Shown one piece after another: positions 4,021 to 13,530 of a DNA stretch of 17,582 bases. This DNA is from a virus, in the UHGV virus genome UHGV-0144530. One strand, written 5' to 3'. The position numbers were made by a program, and so were the translations under genes. Each line of letters opens with the position of its first letter. Within the stretch, counting starts at the first letter, position 1. The notes below the pieces were generated by a model. That model ran no database searches and was not told the origin of the DNA. It was given only the letters and a program-made list of their open reading frames with translations.

Positions 4021-4608
4021 TCAGAAAGGAGGGTAATCGTTCTGGCTGTAACCATAATCATCTGCATGATTCTGGCTTACGTTTTTAGAGCGATTGTCTT
4101 TATCTTTGAGGCTGGCAACCATGTTGGCGATAGTTTCTGGTTGCTTGCCTTCCGCCTTTTCTTTAAGGGTTTGACCTGTTTGTGCAATAAACGGGATGCG
4201 TATTTCCATCTGGTAGCTGTCTGCGCCAGTCTTTTTGTTTGTGGTTAATACTTTCTGGAGCACTAACCCGATTTTCTTTCCATGAAACTCAGGAGCAACA
4301 AATTTACTGGCGGAAACCATATGTTGCGTTAATTGTCCAATCCCGGCACACCCCATCATGGCGTGAACGACATTTGCGCCAAATTTGTTTTCCGTTCCGT
4401 CATTTTTCTGAACACAGACGCTAAGATATTGGATTTTACGTCCGTCGTCGGATTCTCCAGAAAACTCAATAAATTTGGCTCCTTTTTCTGATTGCTTTAG
4501 TTCTGCTTCAGTAATGGTAATGATATGGGCGCCAGTTTCGTTAATAAAACCACCTTGCCCTGCGGTCAGTGCTGCTTCTTCGTTATAAGTAAAAATCACG
4601 TTGCTCAT
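4021..4608 (-). CDS. putative ssDNA-binding / recombination accessory protein with SSB-like acidic C-terminal tip
   Basis: 195 aa; C-terminus ...DDYGYSQNDYPPF resembles the conserved SSB tail (D-D-D-I-P-F); translationally coupled (ATGA) to the upstream AAA ATPase, as in Sak4-SSB modules. Confidence 0.4.
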   Translation of the reverse strand: MSNVIFTYNEEAALTAGQGGFINETGAHIITITEAELKQSEKGAKFIEFSGESDDGRKIQYLSVCVQKNDGTENKFGANVVHAMMGCAGIGQLTQHMVSASKFVAPEFHGKKIGLVLQKVLTTNKKTGADSYQMEIRIPFIAQTGQTLKEKAEGKQPETIANMVASLKDKDNRSKNVSQNHADDYGYSQNDYPPF

Positions 4609-5285
4609 GCGGCGTTTTCCTTAATTTGATGAACATTATTGATGCCGTAGTAATCACAAACAGTGGCATCGACGAAAGAGAGATCGTTATCAATCTCATT
4701 GGAATCAAACATTCCCATTGGGGATTTGACAGTGTCTGCACCGTTGTTTTTCGTGGTGAAAAAGAACTGGTCATCGCGGGTAAGAGTGCGAAGAACTATA
4801 GTAAACATGCCTTCGACAGTGATTTTCTCGTCCAGCATTTTGCCGATAGTTTTCATTTTCACGCGCCCCATAGGGGTTTCTTCGGTATGTGCAAGAAAAT
4901 AGACTCTCAGGTCATCAGGTGCATCCTGTGCAGCCTTAATCACCTCCCATGCGTGGCGGCCTATCTCAGTAAATTTATCAAACGATTTTTCTTCTGAGCG
5001 GCGCATAAACTCATTGCTCATCACATACTGGAAGTCATCAACAATAACGATTCTTTTTCCGTATTCGTGAGCACGCTTAATTGCAGCAACTATTACGTCC
5101 CATTTGTCAGTGGTAACTACGGTTCCTTTTTTTGCTCTGGCATCCCATGCAAGCCAGTCTTTTGATTTAAATGGTAGCGGCTTGCCTATTGGTTTTATAA
5201 GTATTGCTTCCTCTGGATTGATATTTCTCATGCTGGTTGATTTTCCGGTGCCAGATTCACCGAGTATTAATGTCGCAGTTCCCAT
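4605..5285 (-). CDS. RecA-fold AAA_24-type ATPase (Sak4-like recombination protein)
   Basis: 226 aa; Walker A GESGTGKST near the N-terminus; hydrophobic strand plus acidic residues IVIVDDFQ as Walker B; size and position (where lambda gam/bet/exo sit) match phage Sak4-like ATPases; RBS GAGG. Confidence 0.55.
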   Translation of the reverse strand: MGTATLILGESGTGKSTSMRNINPEEAILIKPIGKPLPFKSKDWLAWDARAKKGTVVTTDKWDVIVAAIKRAHEYGKRIVIVDDFQYVMSNEFMRRSEEKSFDKFTEIGRHAWEVIKAAQDAPDDLRVYFLAHTEETPMGRVKMKTIGKMLDEKITVEGMFTIVLRTLTRDDQFFFTTKNNGADTVKSPMGMFDSNEIDNDLSFVDATVCDYYGINNVHQIKENAA

Positions 5286-7794: not shown

Positions 7795-8088
7795 GTCTTT
7801 TCTTTTGCTTAGCATTTCGTCGATTTCTAAGTCAATACGATATTGATCTATTGCTTTTCTCTCGTTTGGGGTTGGTATTTTATACTGTTCAATTAGATCT
7901 GTTGTGTATTTTATTTCATCTAATGTGATTTTTATATCAGAGAGAATCTCTTTTATATCAATTAGATGCTCTTCTTCTTTTGCGCGATTAGAGCTATGTT
8001 CAATCATTTGAGATAGCTTTTTGCTAATGCTTAGCAAAACAAAAAGAATGATGACCAAAACAACAACAAAAACTATCAGAAATTCCAT
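7792..8088 (-). CDS. membrane-anchored coiled-coil protein co-transcribed with cI (98 aa)
   Basis: hydrophobic N-terminal helix EFLIVFVVVLVIILFVLLSI then a charged, heptad-like C-terminal half; strong RBS GGAGGG 4 nt upstream; about 40 nt downstream of the cI stop; strongly AT-rich relative to neighbours. Confidence 0.6.
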   Translation of the reverse strand: MEFLIVFVVVLVIILFVLLSISKKLSQMIEHSSNRAKEEEHLIDIKEILSDIKITLDEIKYTTDLIEQYKIPTPNERKAIDQYRIDLEIDEMLSKRKD

Positions 8089-8128
8089 TATCCCTCCGCA
8101 CTTCCGTAAGTCTTCTTCTGATTATCGG

Positions 8129-8836
8129 TTACCAACTATGAGACGACCAGAATACTCTGCCAATAATCCTTACGGTTTCATGAAATTCATCTCTATCCAT
8201 TACTTCATCCGGGTACTCTTCGCGATTTATTGATCTGATTATCACCGATGTAGGGGTGGCGATTAATGTTTTTACTCGTAACAAATCAGACTGGCAAATA
8301 GCGTAGGTTTTACCATCTCTGATTGTGGTATCTTGCGTGTTAACACCAACAACATCGCCATCGTGAAGCGTTGGTTCCATGCTTTGCCCTACAACCCTAA
8401 CTAGCTTGGCTGATCTTTCTGATACTCCCATCTTTTTCAGATAGTGCTTTCTGAAAACCAAAGAGAACTCCGATGATTCCTCTAGCTCGCAGCTACCGCT
8501 TCCAGCTGAAAGCGAAACGTTAAGAAGAGGCAACGCAACAAACTCGTCATCGTTTCTTTTAATGTCTTCCCATACCACAGCTTTTAAAGATGACTCACGG
8601 ACATTGGATGGTTCTTCATGTGCACCATCCCTCATTTCACCAATACCAGAACTAAGCCATTCAGGACGCACTTTTAAAGCATTGGCTAATTCAACCATCT
8701 TGCGAGATCCGTTTGTTTTACCGGACGACATCTTCTGTATGGCTGGCTGAGATATTCCAACCATGTCAGCAAGCTGTGATTGTGATACCCCTGCTGAGCT
8801 CATGGCTGCATTTAGTCTTTCTGCGAATGTTTTCAT
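8129..8836 (-). CDS. cI: CI-type prophage repressor (HTH plus S24 LexA-like peptidase domain)
   Basis: N-terminal HTH (VSQSQLADMVGISQPAIQKM), Ala-Gly cleavage site in SLSAGSG, catalytic Ser in GQSMEPT and Lys in LRVKTL; ATG at 8836 abuts the operators; ORF-track 8129..8866 begins at an upstream TTG. Confidence 0.85.
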   Translation of the reverse strand: MKTFAERLNAAMSSAGVSQSQLADMVGISQPAIQKMSSGKTNGSRKMVELANALKVRPEWLSSGIGEMRDGAHEEPSNVRESSLKAVVWEDIKRNDDEFVALPLLNVSLSAGSGSCELEESSEFSLVFRKHYLKKMGVSERSAKLVRVVGQSMEPTLHDGDVVGVNTQDTTIRDGKTYAICQSDLLRVKTLIATPTSVIIRSINREEYPDEVMDRDEFHETVRIIGRVFWSSHSW

Positions 8837-8848
8837 ACTCACAAATCT

Positions 8849-8914
8849 ATAACTACGGTTATCCAAAGTAAAATAACAAAGGTTATTGCTATTTTTTATA
8901 ACTTGAGTTATCTT
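8849..8914. promoter_or_regulatory. OR operators with divergent pRM and pR
   Basis: three perfect 14 bp palindromes ATAAC-N4-GTTAT at 8849-8862, 8873-8886 and 8898-8911, centres 24-25 bp apart; plus-strand -35 TTGCTA (8886-8891), 17 bp spacer, -10 TATCTT (8909-8914). Confidence 0.65.
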
Positions 8915-8947
8915 TGGTTATAAGTAATGACCACAAGAGGTATGCTC

Positions 8948-9172
8948 ATGAATTTAGTAATTCAACGAGCCTTGAAAATTGTCGGTAGCCAAAAGCGCCT
9001 TGCCGACAAGTGTGGTGTAACGCAGCCAGCAGTACACAAATGGCTGAAAGGCGGGTTGGTCTCTCCAGAGAAAGTTACCGCCATCGTTAACGCCACTGGA
9101 GGGCAGATCAAGGCTTACGAAATTCGCCCCGATTTGCCACACCTGTTTCCAAAACCGAATCAGGCAGCATAA
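8948..9172 (+). CDS. cro: Cro-like HTH repressor (74 aa)
   Basis: first rightward gene after OR; RBS AAGAGG 8 nt upstream of the ATG at 8948; HTH QKRLADKCGVTQPAVHKW; ORF-track start 8927 is rejected for lack of an RBS. Confidence 0.65.
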   Translation: MNLVIQRALKIVGSQKRLADKCGVTQPAVHKWLKGGLVSPEKVTAIVNATGGQIKAYEIRPDLPHLFPKPNQAA

Positions 9173-9179
9173 GTAACAC

Positions 9180-9223
9180 CGCTCTTTAACAGTCATGGTC
9201 CTCATTCCCGCCGAAATGCGGGA
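9180..9223 (+). promoter_or_regulatory. nutR (boxA plus boxB)
   Basis: boxA CGCTCTTTAACA (9180-9191) and hairpin TCCCGC-CGAAAT-GCGGGA (9206-9223), the same 18 nt as the nutL boxB. Confidence 0.7.
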
Positions 9224-9229
9224 ATACAA

Positions 9230-9262
9230 CGCGCATCAGTTGGTGCGCATAACTTCTTATTT
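9230..9262 (+). terminator. possible tR1-region hairpin
   Basis: GCGCA-tcagttgg-TGCGC followed by a moderately U-rich stretch; weak. Confidence 0.2.
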
Positions 9263-9281
9263 GTTAAGGAAATACTTACAT

Positions 9282-9560
9282 ATGCAACTTACAAGTACTC
9301 GCAAGAAAGCGAATGCAATTACAAGCAACATCCTAAATCGAATTGCTGTACGTGGTCAGCGAAAGGTTGCTGATGCATTAGGGATCAATGAATCGCAAAT
9401 TTCGCGATGGAAAGACAGCTTTATCCCAAAGATGGCCATGCTTCTGGCTGTGCTGGAGTGGGGTGTTGAAGACGAGGAATTAGCGGAGCTGGCAAAGAAA
9501 GTAGCCATGGTGCTGACAAAAGAAAAGCCTCAAGACTGCGGCAACAGTTTTGAGGCCTGA
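9282..9560 (+). CDS. cII: CII transcriptional activator
   Basis: ...[42 protein letters not shown]... closely parallels lambda CII ([28 protein letters not shown]); the upstream context TAAGGAAATACTTACATATG is the same as in lambda; ORF-track start 9195 rejected. Confidence 0.8.
9291..9304 (-). promoter_or_regulatory. candidate CII-binding site of pRE
   Basis: minus strand reads TTGC-gagtac-TTGT, the same distance from the cII ATG as TTGC-N6-TTGC in lambda. Confidence 0.4.
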
Positions 9561-9600
9561 TGTAGAAAGACTGGATCAATCCACAGGAGTCATTATGACA
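9517..9600 (-). ncRNA. candidate OOP-like antisense RNA with its terminator
   Basis: strong minus-strand hairpin (about 12 bp, GCCUCAAAACUG...CAGUCUUGAGGC) followed by UUUUCUUUU, inside the 3' end of cII and antisense to it; 5' end and promoter not defined. Confidence 0.4.
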
Positions 9601-9741
9601 AAACAACTCAGTCCTTACCAGGACAAAATTCACAAACACATACTACGTGATCGCTTCCTGTCCAGCTTCAAGCAGCCTGGTCGATTCCGGGCTGAGTTGG
9701 AAAAAGTGAAGCTGATGCAGAAGGAGAAAGGTCATGAGTAA
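9595..9741 (+). CDS. small ORF (48 aa) using the lambda O translation-initiation region
   Basis: CAGGAGTCATTATGACAAA is the same as the lambda O RBS and start, but the protein diverges after Met-Thr; overlaps the start of the O-like gene. Confidence 0.35.
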
Positions 9742-10594
9742 TCTTGCAACCGTAACACATTTAAGGCCCTCACAACGGCCTGTGGAGCGTCGTGTGGCAG
9801 AAGTTGAAGATGGTTATACCCGTCTTGCAAATGCCCTGTATGAAGAGCTTATCGGCGCAGATTTAACAAAAAATCAGAGCAAGGTTGCCCACGCCATATG
9901 CCGTAAAACATACGGATACGGTAAAAAGATGGATCGCATCTCTGATAGTCAGTTAGCTCAAATTACCAGGCTGCCAAGACAGAAGGTAAACAAGGCCAAG
10001 AATGAGCTTATCGCGATGAAGGTAATCCTTCGCGAAGGCCAGCAAATCGGGCCTAACAAGAACATCGAGGAATGGCAAATCGAAGGGTGTCACTACTCTG
10101 GTGATAATGTCACTGCATTGGTGACAAAAAGTGTCACCAAAACGGTGACAGCGCTGTCACCAAAACAGGGACACACAAAAGAAACTATTACAAAAGAAAA
10201 AAGAAATAATAAAAACACTATGTCCGAAAGTGTTCGGACGGAGTGTGAAAAATCATCTGACCGTCACGAAGAAACCGACAAGGCATTCGAGGAAATATTC
10301 TGGTGTGCAGGCATGCGGAAAGCCGGGAAAAAAAACGCAGCTTCGGCATTCAGAACACAGTTCAGGGAATGGCGTAAAACTACCAGGGGTACGGCAAGCG
10401 AGTTTGCCACGATGCTGGCAGAAGACATCGCATGCAGGAATGGTAAGCAGTTCGGATTCGACAGGTTGTTACCATCGAGCTACTTGAACGGTCAGCGCTG
10501 GAACGACGAAAAGCCAGAAACCATTCAACCACAATCCAAACCATCATCCGCAATCACCGTATCGAAAACTGGCTACGTGTTTTTCGACAGGTGA
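9734..10594 (+). CDS. O: replication initiator, lambda O family, with a divergent C-terminal domain
   Basis: N-terminal half aligns with lambda O (ADLTKxQxKV...RKTYG...MDRIxDSQL...GPNKNIxEW; linker [15 protein letters not shown]); the C-terminal 100 aa are unrelated; RBS AAGGAGAAAGG. Confidence 0.8.
10086..10225. other. origin of replication: iteron array plus AT-rich region inside the O-like gene
   Basis: inverted-repeat iterons on a GTGACA/TGTCAC core (GGTGATAATGTCAC 10100-10113, GGTGACAAAAAGTGTCACC 10120-10138, GGTGACAGCGCTGTCACC 10144-10161), then an AT-rich stretch that closely parallels the lambda ori AT-rich element. Confidence 0.7.
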
Positions 10595-10597
10595 ACC

Positions 10598-10705
10598 ATG
10601 AAATCAAAAATCAAATCGCTACTGGTCGCTGGTTATAACCACGGCTGGTTAAGTATTTCGTTTGTCGATTTCTGGTTTAAAAATCTCAATCTGAGGGAAT
10701 CATGA
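10598..10705 (+). CDS. candidate small ORF (35 aa) coupled to the primase-helicase
   Basis: ATG at 10598 follows GGTGA and the O stop; its stop overlaps the primase-helicase start (ATGA); below the ORF-track cut-off. Confidence 0.25.
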   Translation: MKSKIKSLLVAGYNHGWLSISFVDFWFKNLNLRES

Positions 10706-12582
10706 GGCCAAGTGAACTTAGCGACCTGCTTTGGGCGCAGGTTGACAGGGTGGCTCCGCACCTGTTGCCAAATGGCAAGAAAGAGGGGCATGAGTGGGTT
10801 GCCGGTAACGTCAACGGTGACAAGGGAAACAGCCTTAAGGTCAACCTTAGCGGCAAGAAAAAATGGGCTGATTTCGCTGAGGGAGACGGCGGTGACATGC
10901 TTGATTTGTGGATGGCATGTCGTGGAATTAACCTGCATCAGGCTATGCAGGAAGCGAAAGCATTTCTCGGTATCAAGGATGACGATCACCATTTCGATGC
11001 CAGACGTGAGAAAAAATTCTCCAGACCTGATCGCAAGAAAATCGCCCGCTACGTTACCAGAACAGAATCCCATCTTGAGTACCTGCAATCGCGTGGCATA
11101 TCGCCAGAAATCGTAAAGCGCTACGAGGTTGTCAGCGGCAAGGTGTGGAATGGAGAGCGGGAACTGGATGCTCTGGTGATTCCGTACAAACGCGATGGTG
11201 AGTTGTTGCAGGTCAAGCGAATCAGCACTGAGCGCCCGGACGGGAAGAAAGTCATTATGGCAGAAGGTGATTGCGAACCTTGCCTGTTCGGATGGCAGGC
11301 TCTGGACGCTGGCGTGAGGGCGGTTGTACTTTGCGAAGGCGAAATTGATTGTATGAGCTATGCGCAATACGGCATCTCGGCGTTATCCGTACCGTTTGGT
11401 GGAGGGAAAGGCGCTAAGCAACAGTGGATTGAGTTTGAGTATCACAACCTCGACAGGTTTGAGGAAATATTCATCTCGATGGACGTTGATGATGTTGGTC
11501 GTGAAGCCGCAAGGGAAATCGCAAGCCGACTCGGTGAACATCGTTGCCGTCTTGTTACTCTGCCGTGCAAAGACATCAACGAATGCCTGATGAACGGTGT
11601 TACCGAGGATGAAATCTGGCAGTACATCGGCACGGCATCCTACTTCGATCCTGAAGAACTCTACAGCGCGCGAGAGTTTTACCAGGACACTATCAACGCT
11701 TTCTACGGCAAGCAGCAGTATCTGTTTAATCCACCGTGGGAATCTCTGGCAGATAAATTCCAGTTCCGTGAGGCAGAGTTGACGCTGGTCAATGGTGTGA
11801 ACGGTCACGGAAAAACGGAGGTTGTCGGGCATATGGCACTTGAGGCAATGCGTCAGGGTGTGAAGACGTGCATCGCGTCACTTGAGCTGAAGCCTGGTAT
11901 TCTCCTTAAGCGCCTTACCCGTCAGGCGACGTGCTGCAAGATGCCGCCAGTGCTGGAAATTGACTCTGCATTTAAATTTTATGACGAAAGACTTTGGGTG
12001 TTTGGCCTGACCGGAACGGCGAAAGCCGACAGGCTGATCGAAATATTCGACTACGCTCGCCGCCGATACGGGATCCAGTTATTCATCATCGACAGCCTGA
12101 TGAAATGTGGCATAGGCGACGATGACTATAACGGGCAGAAGGCGTTTGTTGACTCGATTTGCGACTTCAAAAACAAAACAAACTCCCACGTCATTCTCGT
12201 TACTCACTCGCGAAAAGGAGACAGCGAAGAAAAACCAACCGGGAAAATGGACGTAAAAGGCTCTGGAGCGATAACAGACCTGACAGACAACCTTTTCATC
12301 ATCTGGCGTAACAAGGCTCGCGAGAGAGCGTTACAGAGAGTTCAGAGTGGTGAAAAGATGTCAGAGAAGGACGAACAGCTACTGGCATCTCCGGCATCTG
12401 TTTTGATGCTTGAAAAACAACGTAACGGCGAAGGTTGGGAAGGTGGTGTCCCGTTGTTCCTTGACGAGCAATCGCACCAGTTCCTGCAACTTGAATCAGG
12501 ATCGCCATATAGCTACATCGCCAATATGCCGAAATCGGAATATGACGAGGCGTGGCGACAGGAAAACGTGACGGAGTATTAA
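10702..12582 (+). CDS. bifunctional DNA primase-helicase (TOPRIM plus DnaB-like RecA-fold helicase)
   Basis: 626 aa; TOPRIM-like acidic segments (VVLCEGEIDCMSY, ISMDVDDVGRE) in the N-terminal half; helicase Walker A GVNGHGKT and Walker B LFIIDSL in the C-terminal half; occupies the slot of lambda P. Confidence 0.75.
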   Translation: MRPSELSDLLWAQVDRVAPHLLPNGKKEGHEWVAGNVNGDKGNSLKVNLSGKKKWADFAEGDGGDMLDLWMACRGINLHQAMQEAKAFLGIKDDDHHFDARREKKFSRPDRKKIARYVTRTESHLEYLQSRGISPEIVKRYEVVSGKVWNGERELDALVIPYKRDGELLQVKRISTERPDGKKVIMAEGDCEPCLFGWQALDAGVRAVVLCEGEIDCMSYAQYGISALSVPFGGGKGAKQQWIEFEYHNLDRFEEIFISMDVDDVGREAAREIASRLGEHRCRLVTLPCKDINECLMNGVTEDEIWQYIGTASYFDPEELYSAREFYQDTINAFYGKQQYLFNPPWESLADKFQFREAELTLVNGVNGHGKTEVVGHMALEAMRQGVKTCIASLELKPGILLKRLTRQATCCKMPPVLEIDSAFKFYDERLWVFGLTGTAKADRLIEIFDYARRRYGIQLFIIDSLMKCGIGDDDYNGQKAFVDSICDFKNKTNSHVILVTHSRKGDSEEKPTGKMDVKGSGAITDLTDNLFIIWRNKARERALQRVQSGEKMSEKDEQLLASPASVLMLEKQRNGEGWEGGVPLFLDEQSHQFLQLESGSPYSYIANMPKSEYDEAWRQENVTEY

Positions 12583-12687
12583 ATGACAATCTACATCACT
12601 GAGCTAATAGCAGGGTTATCGTTACTAATGGTTCTTACTGTATATATTATTAAGTATATTCTTTATGCGAATAAAAAAAACAATTGA
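12583..12687 (+). CDS. candidate single-TM micro-protein (34 aa)
   Basis: MTIYITELIAGLSLLMVLTVYIIKYILYANKKNN; the ATG directly follows the primase-helicase stop, with GGAG 8 nt upstream; AT-rich; its 3' end overlaps the HNH start across an A8 tract. Confidence 0.3.
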   Translation: MTIYITELIAGLSLLMVLTVYIIKYILYANKKNN

Positions 12688-13276
12688 TCACGATGAGCTT
12701 CTGTCAACATTATCATATGACTCAGAAACAGGAATATTTAAATGGCTAAAAACAAATTCAGTAGTAAGAGTAAAAGGTAGTATTGCTGGAGGTGTTAGTG
12801 GTGGTTATATATGCATTAGCATAAATAATGTTTTGTATTATGCGCATAGGCTTGCTTGGTTCTATGTATACAAAAAATGGCCTCCTAAGTTTATTGATCA
12901 TGTAAATGGGAACAGACTTGACAATAGGATTTCAAATCTAAGACTGGCAACAGAGGAGCAGAATGCAAGAAACATTGTAGGTAATAGGTTAAACACATCC
13001 GGTGCGATTGGAGTGTCTTGGGATAAGACAACTGGCAGGTGGAAGTCTTATGTTGGTTATAAAAATAAGACAATATCGTTAGGGTATTTCGATAGCAAAG
13101 AAGATGCAGCATTCATAGCAGCACTAGCAAGAAAGAAACTATATGGAACTTATGCGAGTAAAGCACTTAATTGCGAGCATGAGCTTTTATCTCAATTTAA
13201 TAATGATGAGGATAAACTTGCGGAATATCTTAAGGAAAAATCTAAAAGGACTCGAAAGCGTGTTAAAAAAAGATAA
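12665..13276 (+). CDS. HNH endonuclease with C-terminal AP2 DNA-binding domain (homing-endonuclease-like)
   Basis: HNH_3-type motif YAHRLAWFYVYKKWPPKFIDHVNGNRLDNRISNLRLATEEQNARN followed by an AP2-like segment SGAIGVSWDKTTGRWKSYVGYKNKTISLGYFDSKEDAAFIA; AT-rich codon usage; no obvious RBS. Confidence 0.75.
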   Translation: MRIKKTIDHDELLSTLSYDSETGIFKWLKTNSVVRVKGSIAGGVSGGYICISINNVLYYAHRLAWFYVYKKWPPKFIDHVNGNRLDNRISNLRLATEEQNARNIVGNRLNTSGAIGVSWDKTTGRWKSYVGYKNKTISLGYFDSKEDAAFIAALARKKLYGTYASKALNCEHELLSQFNNDEDKLAEYLKEKSKRTRKRVKKR

Positions 13277-13277
13277 A

Positions 13278-13308
13278 GGCCTGCTGGTAATCGCAGGTCT
13301 TTTTATTT
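13278..13308 (+). terminator. intrinsic terminator after the HNH gene
   Basis: CCTGC-tggtaatc-GCAGG followed by TCTTTTTATTT. Confidence 0.5.
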
Positions 13309-13323
13309 GGGGGAGAGTAAATC

Positions 13324-13530
13324 GTGGCTGAGTTAATTTTCTCTGCATTGAGGCTTCTCGGTGCTATGTGGATGGTGGCGACGTTCATTGTGATTGCTGG
13401 CTGTTTTGTCCGGTTGGTAGGCGAAGGTAAAGACCTGGTGGGTGTGCTTTTCGGTAGCATTCTCCTGTGGGTGATTATCGGTGTTGCGCCTGTTGCTGTA
13501 GCAAAAATGGCGTGGCGTTTTGTTAGTTGA
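13324..13530 (+). CDS. small two-helix membrane protein (68 aa)
   Basis: GTG start with RBS GGGGGAGAG 6 nt upstream; two hydrophobic segments (MWMVATFIVIAGCFV and VLFGSILLWVIIGVAPVAVA); lies in the slot lambda ren occupies. Confidence 0.5.
   Translation: MAELIFSALRLLGAMWMVATFIVIAGCFVRLVGEGKDLVGVLFGSILLWVIIGVAPVAVAKMAWRFVS

Follow-up and report, generated by a model that had tools for sequence, protein, structure and literature searches.

[quoted passage not shown] The module itself is already known as a sequenced and annotated replication cassette of lambdoid prophages. It is annotated in ES18, was described for epsilon34 in 2008 (PMC2629481) and has been described further (PMC10307801), and we found it in 286 of 5,426 complete E. 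coli genomes (~5%). Annotated phages already in the databases match the window's cassette at 98% identity, and little is added here as discovery. The features discussed below are listed in Table 1.

Table 1. Features of the replication region, with positions in the window and the evidence for each ("." denotes a feature with no strand assigned).
Feature	Position	Strand	Evidence or description
oop-like antisense RNA (putative)	9508-9584	-	5' end homologous to lambda oop +1; terminator hairpin with a U run behind it
Conserved 33-nt lambdoid boundary cassette	9570-9602	+	oop 5' end, po -10 on the opposite strand, Shine-Dalgarno GGAG, ATG ACA AA
orf48, 48-aa DUF2740 protein, P22 orf48 family	9595-9741	+	PF10872, E 8.9e-29, 99.4 bits vs cut-off 27; phrog_1913
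Initiator, lambda O family, 286 aa	9734-10594	+	Pfam, NCBIfam, BLASTP and phrog matches
Four 19-bp palindromic iterons, TGTCAC-N7-GTGACA	10088-10173	.	Pattern scan
A-rich origin element	10174-10206	.	CACAAAAGAAACTATTACAAAAGAAAAAAGAAA, one base different from lambda
Mosaic junction	10207-10209	.	PhiR12_1 identity (99%) ends at 10206; Stx2a_F403 and ES18 identity starts at ~10208
Initiator C-terminal domain, aa 161-286	10214-10594	+	phrog_33384 at 6e-88
Hairpin, 7-bp stem GTCCGAA-AGTG-TTCGGAC	10222-10239	.	Left edge of the right-hand module
Initiator C-terminal tail, 18 aa	10538-10591	+	Common to S107 and SI8 initiators
35-aa ORF (ES18 gp60, epsilon34 gene 51)	10598-10705	+	phrog_21848 at 4e-26
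Primase-helicase, T7 gp4/Twinkle type, 626 aa	10702-12582	+	Pfam and structure matches

The initiator belongs to the lambda O family by its N-terminal domain and its internal origin, as judged from sequence. An origin-binding N-terminal domain (aa 1 to ~157) is joined to a C-terminal domain unlike that of lambda (aa ~161-286) by a linker that the origin sequence encodes. Phage_rep_O (PF04492) matches aa 20-114 (E 1e-37, 128.8 bits vs a cut-off of 28.7), TIGR01610 matches as well (E 1.6e-30, 105.4 bits vs 45.5), and BLASTP gave 49% identity to lambda O over aa 1-157, with no similarity to lambda O beyond residue 157. Both the lambda-like N-terminal domain and the replaced C-terminal domain proposed in an initial annotation of this DNA are borne out by these matches. 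A lambda-type P-binding C-terminal domain was not found in the initiator and no P gene is present. The C-terminal domain, presumed to be a recruitment domain, had no match in Pfam or NCBIfam searches; a homologue search gave mostly short or partial proteins and, for this domain, hardly anything but relatives from enterobacteria at ≥60% identity, a set without the depth that a good profile needs, and AlphaFold modelling of the full-length initiator from 12 aligned sequences was of poor quality (mean pLDDT 44.5).

Inside the initiator gene lie four iteron copies (10088-10106, 10108-10126, 10132-10150 and 10155-10173), presumed from sequence to be the binding sites of the initiator N-terminal domain. 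Allowing at most two mismatches, the iteron pattern has five matches in the window vs 0.53 expected, and five were reached in 0 of 200 shuffles. Their start-to-start spacing of 20, 24 and 23 bp repeats the number and spacing of the lambda copies (39034, 39054, 39078 and 39101), and the two sets differ in half-site sequence only. The initial annotation had set inverted repeats here, placed at 10100-10161, against the iterons of lambda; the inverted repeats are present, in a slightly wider block, but the contrast does not hold, since lambda iterons are themselves 19-bp palindromes (TCCCTC-N7-GAGGGA). Iteron sequence covaries with the type of N-domain, TCCCTC iterons accompanying N-domains of the ES18 type. 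The adjoining A-rich element, presumed to be the DNA-unwinding element, is as close to lambda as that annotation had it and is the last stretch that the window has in common with PhiR12_1. To its right, the hairpin at 10222-10239 could, speculatively, be the right arm of the origin. A conserved structure for this hairpin was sought through compensatory changes relative to Stx2a_F403 and set aside: a single pair has both of its bases changed and another pair is broken, an insufficient basis for the argument.

The origin sits at a mosaic junction, with the N-domain and iteron module on the left and the C-domain, the 35-aa ORF and the primase-helicase on the right. Natural recombinants define it from both sides: PhiR12_1 has the same N-domain and iterons (99%) joined to the lambda C-terminus, P and ren, and ES18, with a lambda-like N-domain, and Stx2a_F403, with an HTH_36-type N-domain, are joined to the window-type C-terminus and primase-helicase. 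Among IMG/VR loci with the window-type C-terminus and enough downstream DNA, 77 of 77 carry the primase-helicase, with no P and no gp12-type helicase. When the 76 informative viral contigs with the window-type N-domain are taken instead, 72 combine the window-type C-terminus with the primase-helicase, 4 combine the lambda C-terminus with P and none is mixed, i.e., the type of C-terminus predicts the partner gene in 76 of 76. The breakpoints recur at domain borders, at 10207-10209 in three independent N-domain types and at 10535 in the S107 and SI8 types. These recombinants, the junction and the perfect covariation agree with the mosaic that had been proposed (N-terminus and origin of lambda O, a foreign C-terminus and a primase-helicase in place of P), and the C-terminal part of the initiator (aa ~161-286), the 35-aa ORF and the primase-helicase make up a single stretch of DNA that is exchanged as a whole in recombination.

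The stop codon of the 35-aa ORF overlaps the start of the primase-helicase, and the ORF occurs as two alleles, 69-71% identical, each keeping 35 codons. The primase-helicase, for which "primase" is here a label taken from homology, has a domain at aa 1-94 that is DnaG-ZBD-like but zinc-less, followed by TOPRIM (aa ~205-300) and SF4 helicase (aa ~355-600) domains. The profile search found both Toprim_2 (E 3.5e-12, 47 bits vs a cut-off of 22.1) and AAA_25 (E 2e-6, 28 bits vs 27), with DnaB_C just under its cut-off (23.8 vs 27), so the TOPRIM and helicase parts that the initial annotation had assigned to this 626-aa protein are both present, with intact catalytic motifs. Structures of T7 gp4 (PDB 5ikn) match aa 192-539 at E 7e-25 and Twinkle matches at 6e-14. 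The TOPRIM acidic residues E212/E214/D216, D261/D263 and D291 are kept in the T7 gp4 alignment, where EGEID, DVDD and KDINE align with T7 E157, D207/D209 and D237, and the helicase motifs H1, H1a, H2, H3 and H4 align too (Walker A K371, E395, Walker B D464, H502, GSGA and the arginine finger R536). Foldseek placed the N-terminal domain (model pLDDT >90) in the DnaG ZBD fold (2au3, E 1.8e-5; 1d0q_A, TMt 0.66). The relationship to the DnaG ZBD draws on this fold search and an NCBIfam dnaG match, phmmer of aa 1-200 against PDB sequences having returned nothing even at E 10.

The nearest relatives of the module are mEp043, Sf101 and vB_EcoP-720R6, which have 98% DNA identity to the window over the 3' end of cII (720R6 from orf48), orf48, the initiator, orf35 and the primase-helicase, annotated in these phages as replication protein O and as DNA primase/helicase or toprim protein. 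The module of mEp043 and Sf101 is otherwise the same, but it is without the HNH-AP2 endonuclease inserted after the primase-helicase of the window, and the match ends at ~12605. ES18 (gp58-gp61, AY736146) and epsilon34 (genes 49-53, PMC2629481) have the same order of a small ORF, an O-like initiator with an internal origin, a 35-aa ORF and a 626-aa primase-helicase, with DNA identity of 93-94% from 10214 rightward (for ES18, 93.8% over 10214-11198), and the initiator C-termini of ES18 and the window are nearly identical in protein alignment. On the left side they differ: ES18 and epsilon34 have TCCCTC iterons and an N-domain hardly different from that of lambda (94% identity to lambda gpO aa 17-148; PMC2629481), whereas the window has TGTCAC iterons and the more distant N-domain described above, and the small upstream ORF is HK97 gp53-like in ES18 and P22 orf48-like in the window. 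The GenBank record of ES18 carries the annotations "similar to lambda ori", "similar to phage lambda gpO" and "putative primase/helicase; similar to phage T7 gene 4".

The PhiR12 phages (PV340549 and others) are 99% identical to the window over orf48, the N-domain, the iterons and the A-rich element up to 10206; their C-terminus, however, is identical to that of lambda O and is followed by P and ren. The reverse holds for Eru5, a replication type of Stx phages (Stx2a_F403, Min27, phi24B; PMC8951638), which the window matches from 10208 rightward. Here, the C-terminal domain and primase-helicase are 94-98% identical to those of the window, but the N-domain is of the HTH_36 type, GC-rich direct repeats stand in place of lambda-like iterons, and the Walker A motif of the helicase is interrupted by an intein-like insertion of 342 aa. 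Lambda itself has in common with the window the N-domain family, the four 19-bp palindromic iterons (20/24/23) within the gene for the initiator, the A-rich element and a location following cII and oop; it differs in the unrelated C-terminus after aa ~157 and in that the window, without P and ren, has a phage helicase in place of a loader of host DnaB. P22 genes 18 and 12 also pair an O-like initiator with a phage-encoded replicative helicase, with orf48 upstream, but gp12, a helicase of the DnaB type, has no primase domain, its N-terminal half is not homologous and the initiator C-terminus differs. T7 gp4 and mitochondrial Twinkle have the same TOPRIM then RecA-type SF4 helicase domain, at ~28% identity, and every catalytic motif aligns. 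The window protein differs from them in its zinc-ligand-free DnaG ZBD fold, in an insertion of ~20 aa after the arginine finger and in its theta-origin, initiator-dependent context.

Upstream lies a boundary cassette, ACTGGATCAATCCACAGGAGTCATTATGACAAA, in which 31 of 33 nt are as in lambda just before and into gene O. In lambda, the corresponding sequence holds the 5' end of the oop antisense RNA together with its -10 region. The oop-like RNA of the window overlaps the 3' end of cII and folds at -25.7 kcal/mol (z -3.4; equalled in 0 of 200 shuffles). An Rfam search of 8000-13500 at E ≤ 1 found no oop family, only a sub-threshold Mu-gpT-DE match (20 bits vs 49), so the oop reading draws on homology to lambda and on folding. 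A po-like -10 (CATAAT, minus strand) is conserved; a sigma-70 scan found no po-like promoter at 9592-9620, and no convincing -35 was found by eye. The orf48 that follows overlaps the start codon of the initiator by 8 nt (ATGAGTAA) and is 91% identical in DNA to P22 and SE1; in P22-like phages such as SE1, the DUF2740 ORF lies between the cII-like gene and the initiator gene, as it does here.

It had been proposed that the start of gene O survives at 9595 as a scar, fused to an unrelated 48-aa ORF. The match to the ribosome-binding site and start of lambda O is real, taking in the Shine-Dalgarno sequence and the ATG with the five bases after it, and this is what speaks for a private scar of this phage, formed by recombination as a lambda O gene was displaced. 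We consider such a private scar very improbable. The same cassette aligns before O in lambda, before orf48 in the P22-like SE1 and before gp53 in HK97, is found in PhiR12_1 too, and so precedes three different first genes; it coincides with the lambda oop 5' end and the po -10, next to an oop-like terminated RNA that folds in the window; and the 48-aa ORF is not unrelated but a member of a conserved family, DUF2740. The cassette is also widespread in lambdoid records: 285 phage records match 9560-9745, of which 160 cover <80% of the query, and the weakest matches reach the cassette alone.

The covariation of C-terminus and helicase could come partly from physical linkage, since the two are ~110 bp apart and would rarely be separated by recombination. 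Taken as the whole explanation, the C-domain and the primase-helicase would travel together by adjacency, and the helicase would reach the opened origin by itself, as T7 gp4, which loads without a dedicated loader, might suggest, or via the product of the 35-aa ORF, which is always found between the two. This seems to us unlikely. The breakpoints fall repeatedly at domain borders, with at least an 18-aa tail always staying with the helicase, none of the 76 informative loci has a lambda-type C-terminus beside the primase-helicase or the reverse, and the equivalent region of lambda O, its C-terminal region, is the partner-specific part by the established genetics of O-P hybrids. A greater though still minor chance is given to the 626-aa protein being a helicase only, with its primase part inactive or used otherwise (e.g., structurally) and priming left to host DnaG. 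Despite the DnaG ZBD fold, aa 1-72 contain no Cys, so that a zinc ribbon is not possible, and the zinc ligands are missing throughout the family, even in members of 39% identity; the zinc-binding domain of T7 gp4 is needed for template-directed priming, and gp4B, which lacks it, cannot make template-directed primers, so primase activity is not assured. Metazoan Twinkle, with degenerated zinc-finger and primase functions, offers a parallel. Against this stand the conservation of every TOPRIM catalytic acidic residue and that of the zinc-less domain itself, whose residues W32, G35, G39, G42, D57, G64, D65 and W70 are invariant across the family, which argues for retained function rather than decay.

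Recruitment of the phage's own helicase by the initiator C-terminus, the reading we prefer, may involve the 18-aa tail. This tail is the only part of the initiator in common with the S107 and SI8 initiators, which lie upstream of the same primase-helicase and have 17-18 identical tail residues in proteins otherwise ~20% identical to the window initiator. It is inherited with the helicase even where the rest of the initiator is replaced, is kept in initiator variants 60-77% identical, and sits after a predicted disordered linker. Tentatively, the tail may be a portable docking peptide for the primase-helicase, and the conserved zinc-less ZBD-like domain may belong to a primase that recognises its template unlike DnaG or T7 gp4; neither appears to have been described previously.

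In lambda, the O C-terminus binds P, which brings host DnaB; the gene 12 product of P22 replaces DnaB, and T7 gp4 loads itself. By analogy, the window initiator would bind the iterons and open the A-rich DNA like lambda O, and its alternative C-terminus would recruit a phage-encoded hexameric SF4 helicase to which a TOPRIM primase domain is fused. Initiation would then need neither host DnaB nor DnaC, an independence that we regard as plausible; whether host DnaG is dispensable is uncertain, because the primase zinc-binding domain has lost its zinc ligands. Our literature search found no experiment on DnaB, DnaC or DnaG dependence of the ES18-type module, nor on helicase or primase activity of this primase-helicase family.

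PhiR12 compared with mEp043, Sf101 and the window is a natural experiment, in which the same origin and N-domain occur with either the lambda C-terminus and P or the window-type C-terminus and the primase-helicase, and the PhiR12 phages provide a natural "isogenic" control for partner specificity. The matter is also relevant to the Eru5-type Stx phages, for which the literature discusses replication capacity in relation to toxin output. The pair bears on the choice of helicase partner by an O-type initiator, and on whether such prophages escape dependence on host DnaB and DnaC.

The replication module of the window is chimeric, as the initial annotation had proposed, and natural recombinants exchange its two halves, i.e., the initiator N-terminal domain (N-domain) with the origin against the C-terminal domain (C-domain) with the helicase block. 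Over 9570-10206 the phage PhiR12_1 shares 99% identity with the window, a stretch that holds a 33-nt boundary cassette, the 48-codon ORF (orf48), the N-domain, the four iterons and the A-rich element; right of 10206 its C-terminus is identical to that of lambda O and is followed by P and ren. In Stx2a_F403, Min27 and phi24B the N-domain is unrelated, of HTH_36 type, and comes with GC-rich repeats, and in ES18 it is almost that of lambda and comes with TCCCTC iterons; Stx2a_F403 and ES18 match the window from about 10208 rightward, through the C-domain, the 35-codon ORF (orf35) and the primase-helicase. Since the one identity ends at 10206 and the other begins at about 10208, sequence comparison places the mosaic junction at 10207-10209, directly after the A-rich element. 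The region is part of a lambdoid prophage's early-right operon, and the whole window is a typical mosaic, with Sf101, HK620, mEp043 and several Stx phages as best overall relatives and a coverage of at most 51% by any single best relative in the whole-length comparison.

Features of the early-right region (window positions)
Feature	Position	Strand	Sequence or remark
cI	8129-8866	minus
cro	8927-9172
cII	end at 9560
Predicted oop-like antisense RNA	9508-9584	minus	overlaps the cII 3' end
Boundary cassette	9570-9602		33 nt
48-codon ORF (orf48)	9595-9741
286-aa initiator	9734-10594
Iteron 1, 19 bp	start 10088		TGTCACTACTCTGGTGATA
Iteron 2, 19 bp	start 10108		TGTCACTGCATTGGTGACA
Iteron 3, 19 bp	start 10132		TGTCACCAAAACGGTGACA
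Iteron 4, 19 bp	start 10155		TGTCACCAAAACAGGGACA
A-rich stretch	10174-10206		one base different from lambda
Hairpin	10222-10239		7-bp stem, GTCCGAA-AGTG-TTCGGAC
35-codon ORF (orf35)	10598-10705
626-aa primase-helicase	10702-12582
HNH-AP2 endonuclease ORF	12665-13276

Covariation of the C-terminus with the partner gene was followed in IMG/VR. A scan with the C-domain returned 210 contigs, and among the best 80 of these the primase-helicase is present in all 77 that have enough downstream DNA, the other three reaching the contig end; neither lambda P nor a P22 gp12-type helicase occurs among these best 80 of 210. With the N-domain as query, a further 80 loci were obtained: 72 carry the window-type C-terminus with the primase-helicase, four carry the lambda C-terminus with P, three are cut at the contig end and one is a deleted prophage remnant (L148 4001-4817), whose initiator gene is truncated within the C-domain and fused to unrelated DNA. 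No N-domain locus combines one C-terminus with the other partner, and the C-terminus type therefore predicts the partner gene in 76/76 informative loci.

In profile searches, initiator residues 20-114 match Pfam Phage_rep_O (E 1e-37), and TIGR01610 is also matched; identity to lambda O is 49% over residues 1-157 and there is no similarity beyond residue 157, supporting both the lambda-like N-domain and the replaced lambda-type C-terminus of the initial annotation, and the AT-rich origin element it described as lambda-like is present as well. The four iterons lie within the initiator gene with start-to-start spacings of 20, 24 and 23 bp. Their pattern has five matches in the window against 0.53 expected, a number reached in 0/200 shuffles; GTGACA taken alone shows no enrichment across the window (11 versus 7.9 expected), so that it is the local array which carries the signal. 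This array is found where the initial annotation put it, at 10100-10161, but that span takes in only 62 of the 86 bp, about two-thirds. The iterons are indeed inverted repeats; the contrast drawn with lambda, however, does not hold, because the annotated lambda iterons (starts 39034, 39054, 39078 and 39101, i.e., the same 20/24/23 spacing) are likewise 19-bp internal palindromes, TCCCTC-N7-GAGGGA. Given the identical spacing and the palindromic 19-bp iterons, the origin design is that of lambda, and the half-site alone differs. The hairpin immediately right of the mosaic junction is roughly where the lambda origin has an inverted repeat beyond its A-rich region; in Stx2a_F403 one of its pairs is altered on both sides and one is broken.

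For the downstream gene, the claim of a 626-aa TOPRIM and helicase protein is borne out by domain searches, with Toprim_2 (3.5e-12) and AAA_25 matched and DnaB_C slightly under the Pfam cut-off. The protein also matches phrog_239 "DNA primase/helicase" (1e-171), and solved structures of T7 gp4 (E 7e-25, aa 192-539) and Twinkle (6e-14) are found as well. Aligned with T7 gp4, the protein retains the acidic residues of TOPRIM (EGEID at aa 212-216, DVDD at 261-264 and D291) and also Walker A GHGKT (K371), E395, Walker B IID (D464), H502, GSGA and R536 as arginine finger. Residues 1-94 (10702-10983) have a predicted structure of pLDDT >90, whose best structural matches are DnaG zinc-binding domains (Aquifex DnaG 2au3, E 1.8e-5; 1d0q_A, TM 0.66 over 97 columns). 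No cysteine occurs in residues 1-72, either here or in relatives down to 39% identity, in which this domain resembling the zinc-binding domain (ZBD-like) is otherwise strongly conserved. It is probably functional, yet unable to bind zinc as DnaG and T7 gp4 do; as zinc ligands are lacking, primase activity and independence of DnaG are only putative.

Some copies of this region are interrupted. The primase-helicase orthologue of Stx2a_F403 (L004 2996-5902) is 968 aa long, likewise in Min27 and phi24B, and the Stx2a_F403 protein has a 342-aa insertion exactly inside Walker A (GHGK/A...THN/TEVV), which by its position is an intein signature; the window's copy is intein-free. In six loci (L043, L057, L060, L076, L082 and L088) an insertion of about 490 nt separates orf35 from the primase-helicase (about 4490-4980), and in L017 and L032 the primase-helicase match is broken after about aa 370. 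The orf35 (phrog_21848; ES18 gp60) is always found between initiator and primase-helicase, as two alleles 69-71% identical, both of 35 codons and with mostly conservative differences. The HNH_3 and AP2 endonuclease ORF (Pfam 8e-16 and 1e-7) lies in an island of 31-38% GC (12600-13350; flanks about 47-52%), after the stop of the primase-helicase and before the nin region. It is absent from mEp043 and Sf101, whose match stops at about 12605; 3/80 IMG/VR loci have a 100% identical copy, and at the same site other loci have relatives of 38-40% identity. Its appearance is that of an inserted, free-standing homing endonuclease gene.

The sequence shows what the domains are, that the origin has a lambda-like design, and that the C-domain, or its tail, is inherited together with the helicase gene. 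We infer that the N-domain would bind the four iterons and destabilise the A-rich DNA, by analogy with lambda O, and that the C-terminal part would recruit the phage's own SF4 helicase, which would then unwind and possibly prime; in that case the module would do without lambda P and without DnaB and DnaC of the host. There are precedents, i.e., P22 gene 12 stands in for DnaB and T7 gp4 is self-loading. In the literature searched, we found no experimental work on the host-factor requirements of the module. As to the contact, Salmonella phages S107, SI8, SF6 and others carry an initiator of another kind, with about 20% identity to that of the window, which has only the last 18 residues in common; DNA identity is back at 10535, and downstream of the tail come the same orf35 and primase-helicase. 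The tail is also nearly invariant in C-domain variants of only 60-77% overall identity, and it is possibly a docking peptide.

The boundary cassette, which takes in the Shine-Dalgarno sequence, the start ATG and five bases after it, is identical to lambda at 31 of 33 nt, so that the lambda match that the initial annotation took for a scar at 9595 is real. It is not private to this genome: the same cassette stands upstream of O in lambda, of orf48 in P22-like SE1 and PhiR12_1, and of gp53 in HK97, and 285 phage records match 9560-9745, the weakest through the cassette alone. The 48-aa ORF itself is Pfam DUF2740 (E 9e-29), a small ORF between cII-like and initiator genes of P22-like phages. Debris of a displaced O gene was considered and is rejected, as the cassette precedes different genes in several lambdoid phages; on the distribution and the orf48 assignment it is a functional boundary element that lambdoid genomes share, and likely a recombination linker. 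Its lambda counterpart is where the oop antisense RNA has its 5' end and the oop promoter its -10, and HK633, among the matching records, is annotated "similar to lambda oop mRNA". Folding of the minus-strand sequence 9584-9508 predicts a hairpin at the 5' end, a strong terminator hairpin and a run of U (-25.7 kcal/mol, z -3.4); no Rfam family was found for this candidate RNA. The cII that it overlaps is mechanically an ORF of 121 aa (9195-9560) with a 29-aa N-terminal extension; because relatives begin at an internal ATG (MQLTSTRKK..., about 92 aa), the true start is probably 9282.

The chimeric reading is thus confirmed, with two details misread (the iteron contrast and the scar), and the module is already known and common. 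In mEp043, Sf101 and vB_EcoP-720R6 it is 98% identical and annotated as replication protein O and DNA primase/helicase, and the ES18 GenBank record has "similar to lambda ori", "similar to phage lambda gpO" and "putative primase/helicase; similar to phage T7 gene 4". The same region and its lambda-like N-domain were remarked on in the epsilon34 paper (PMC2629481), it figures as the third type of replication module among P22-like phages in a 2023 survey of Salmonella typing phages (PMC10307801), and the right-hand block corresponds to the Eru5 type of Stx phages (PMC8951638). The module is present in 286/5,426 complete E. coli genomes (coverage at least 80%), under the PGAP names replication protein, toprim domain-containing protein and DUF2740 family protein. 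What remains of interest is the zinc-less ZBD-like domain and the possible 18-aa docking tail, and the natural PhiR12/mEp043 pair is a test bed for the partner specificity of initiator and helicase.
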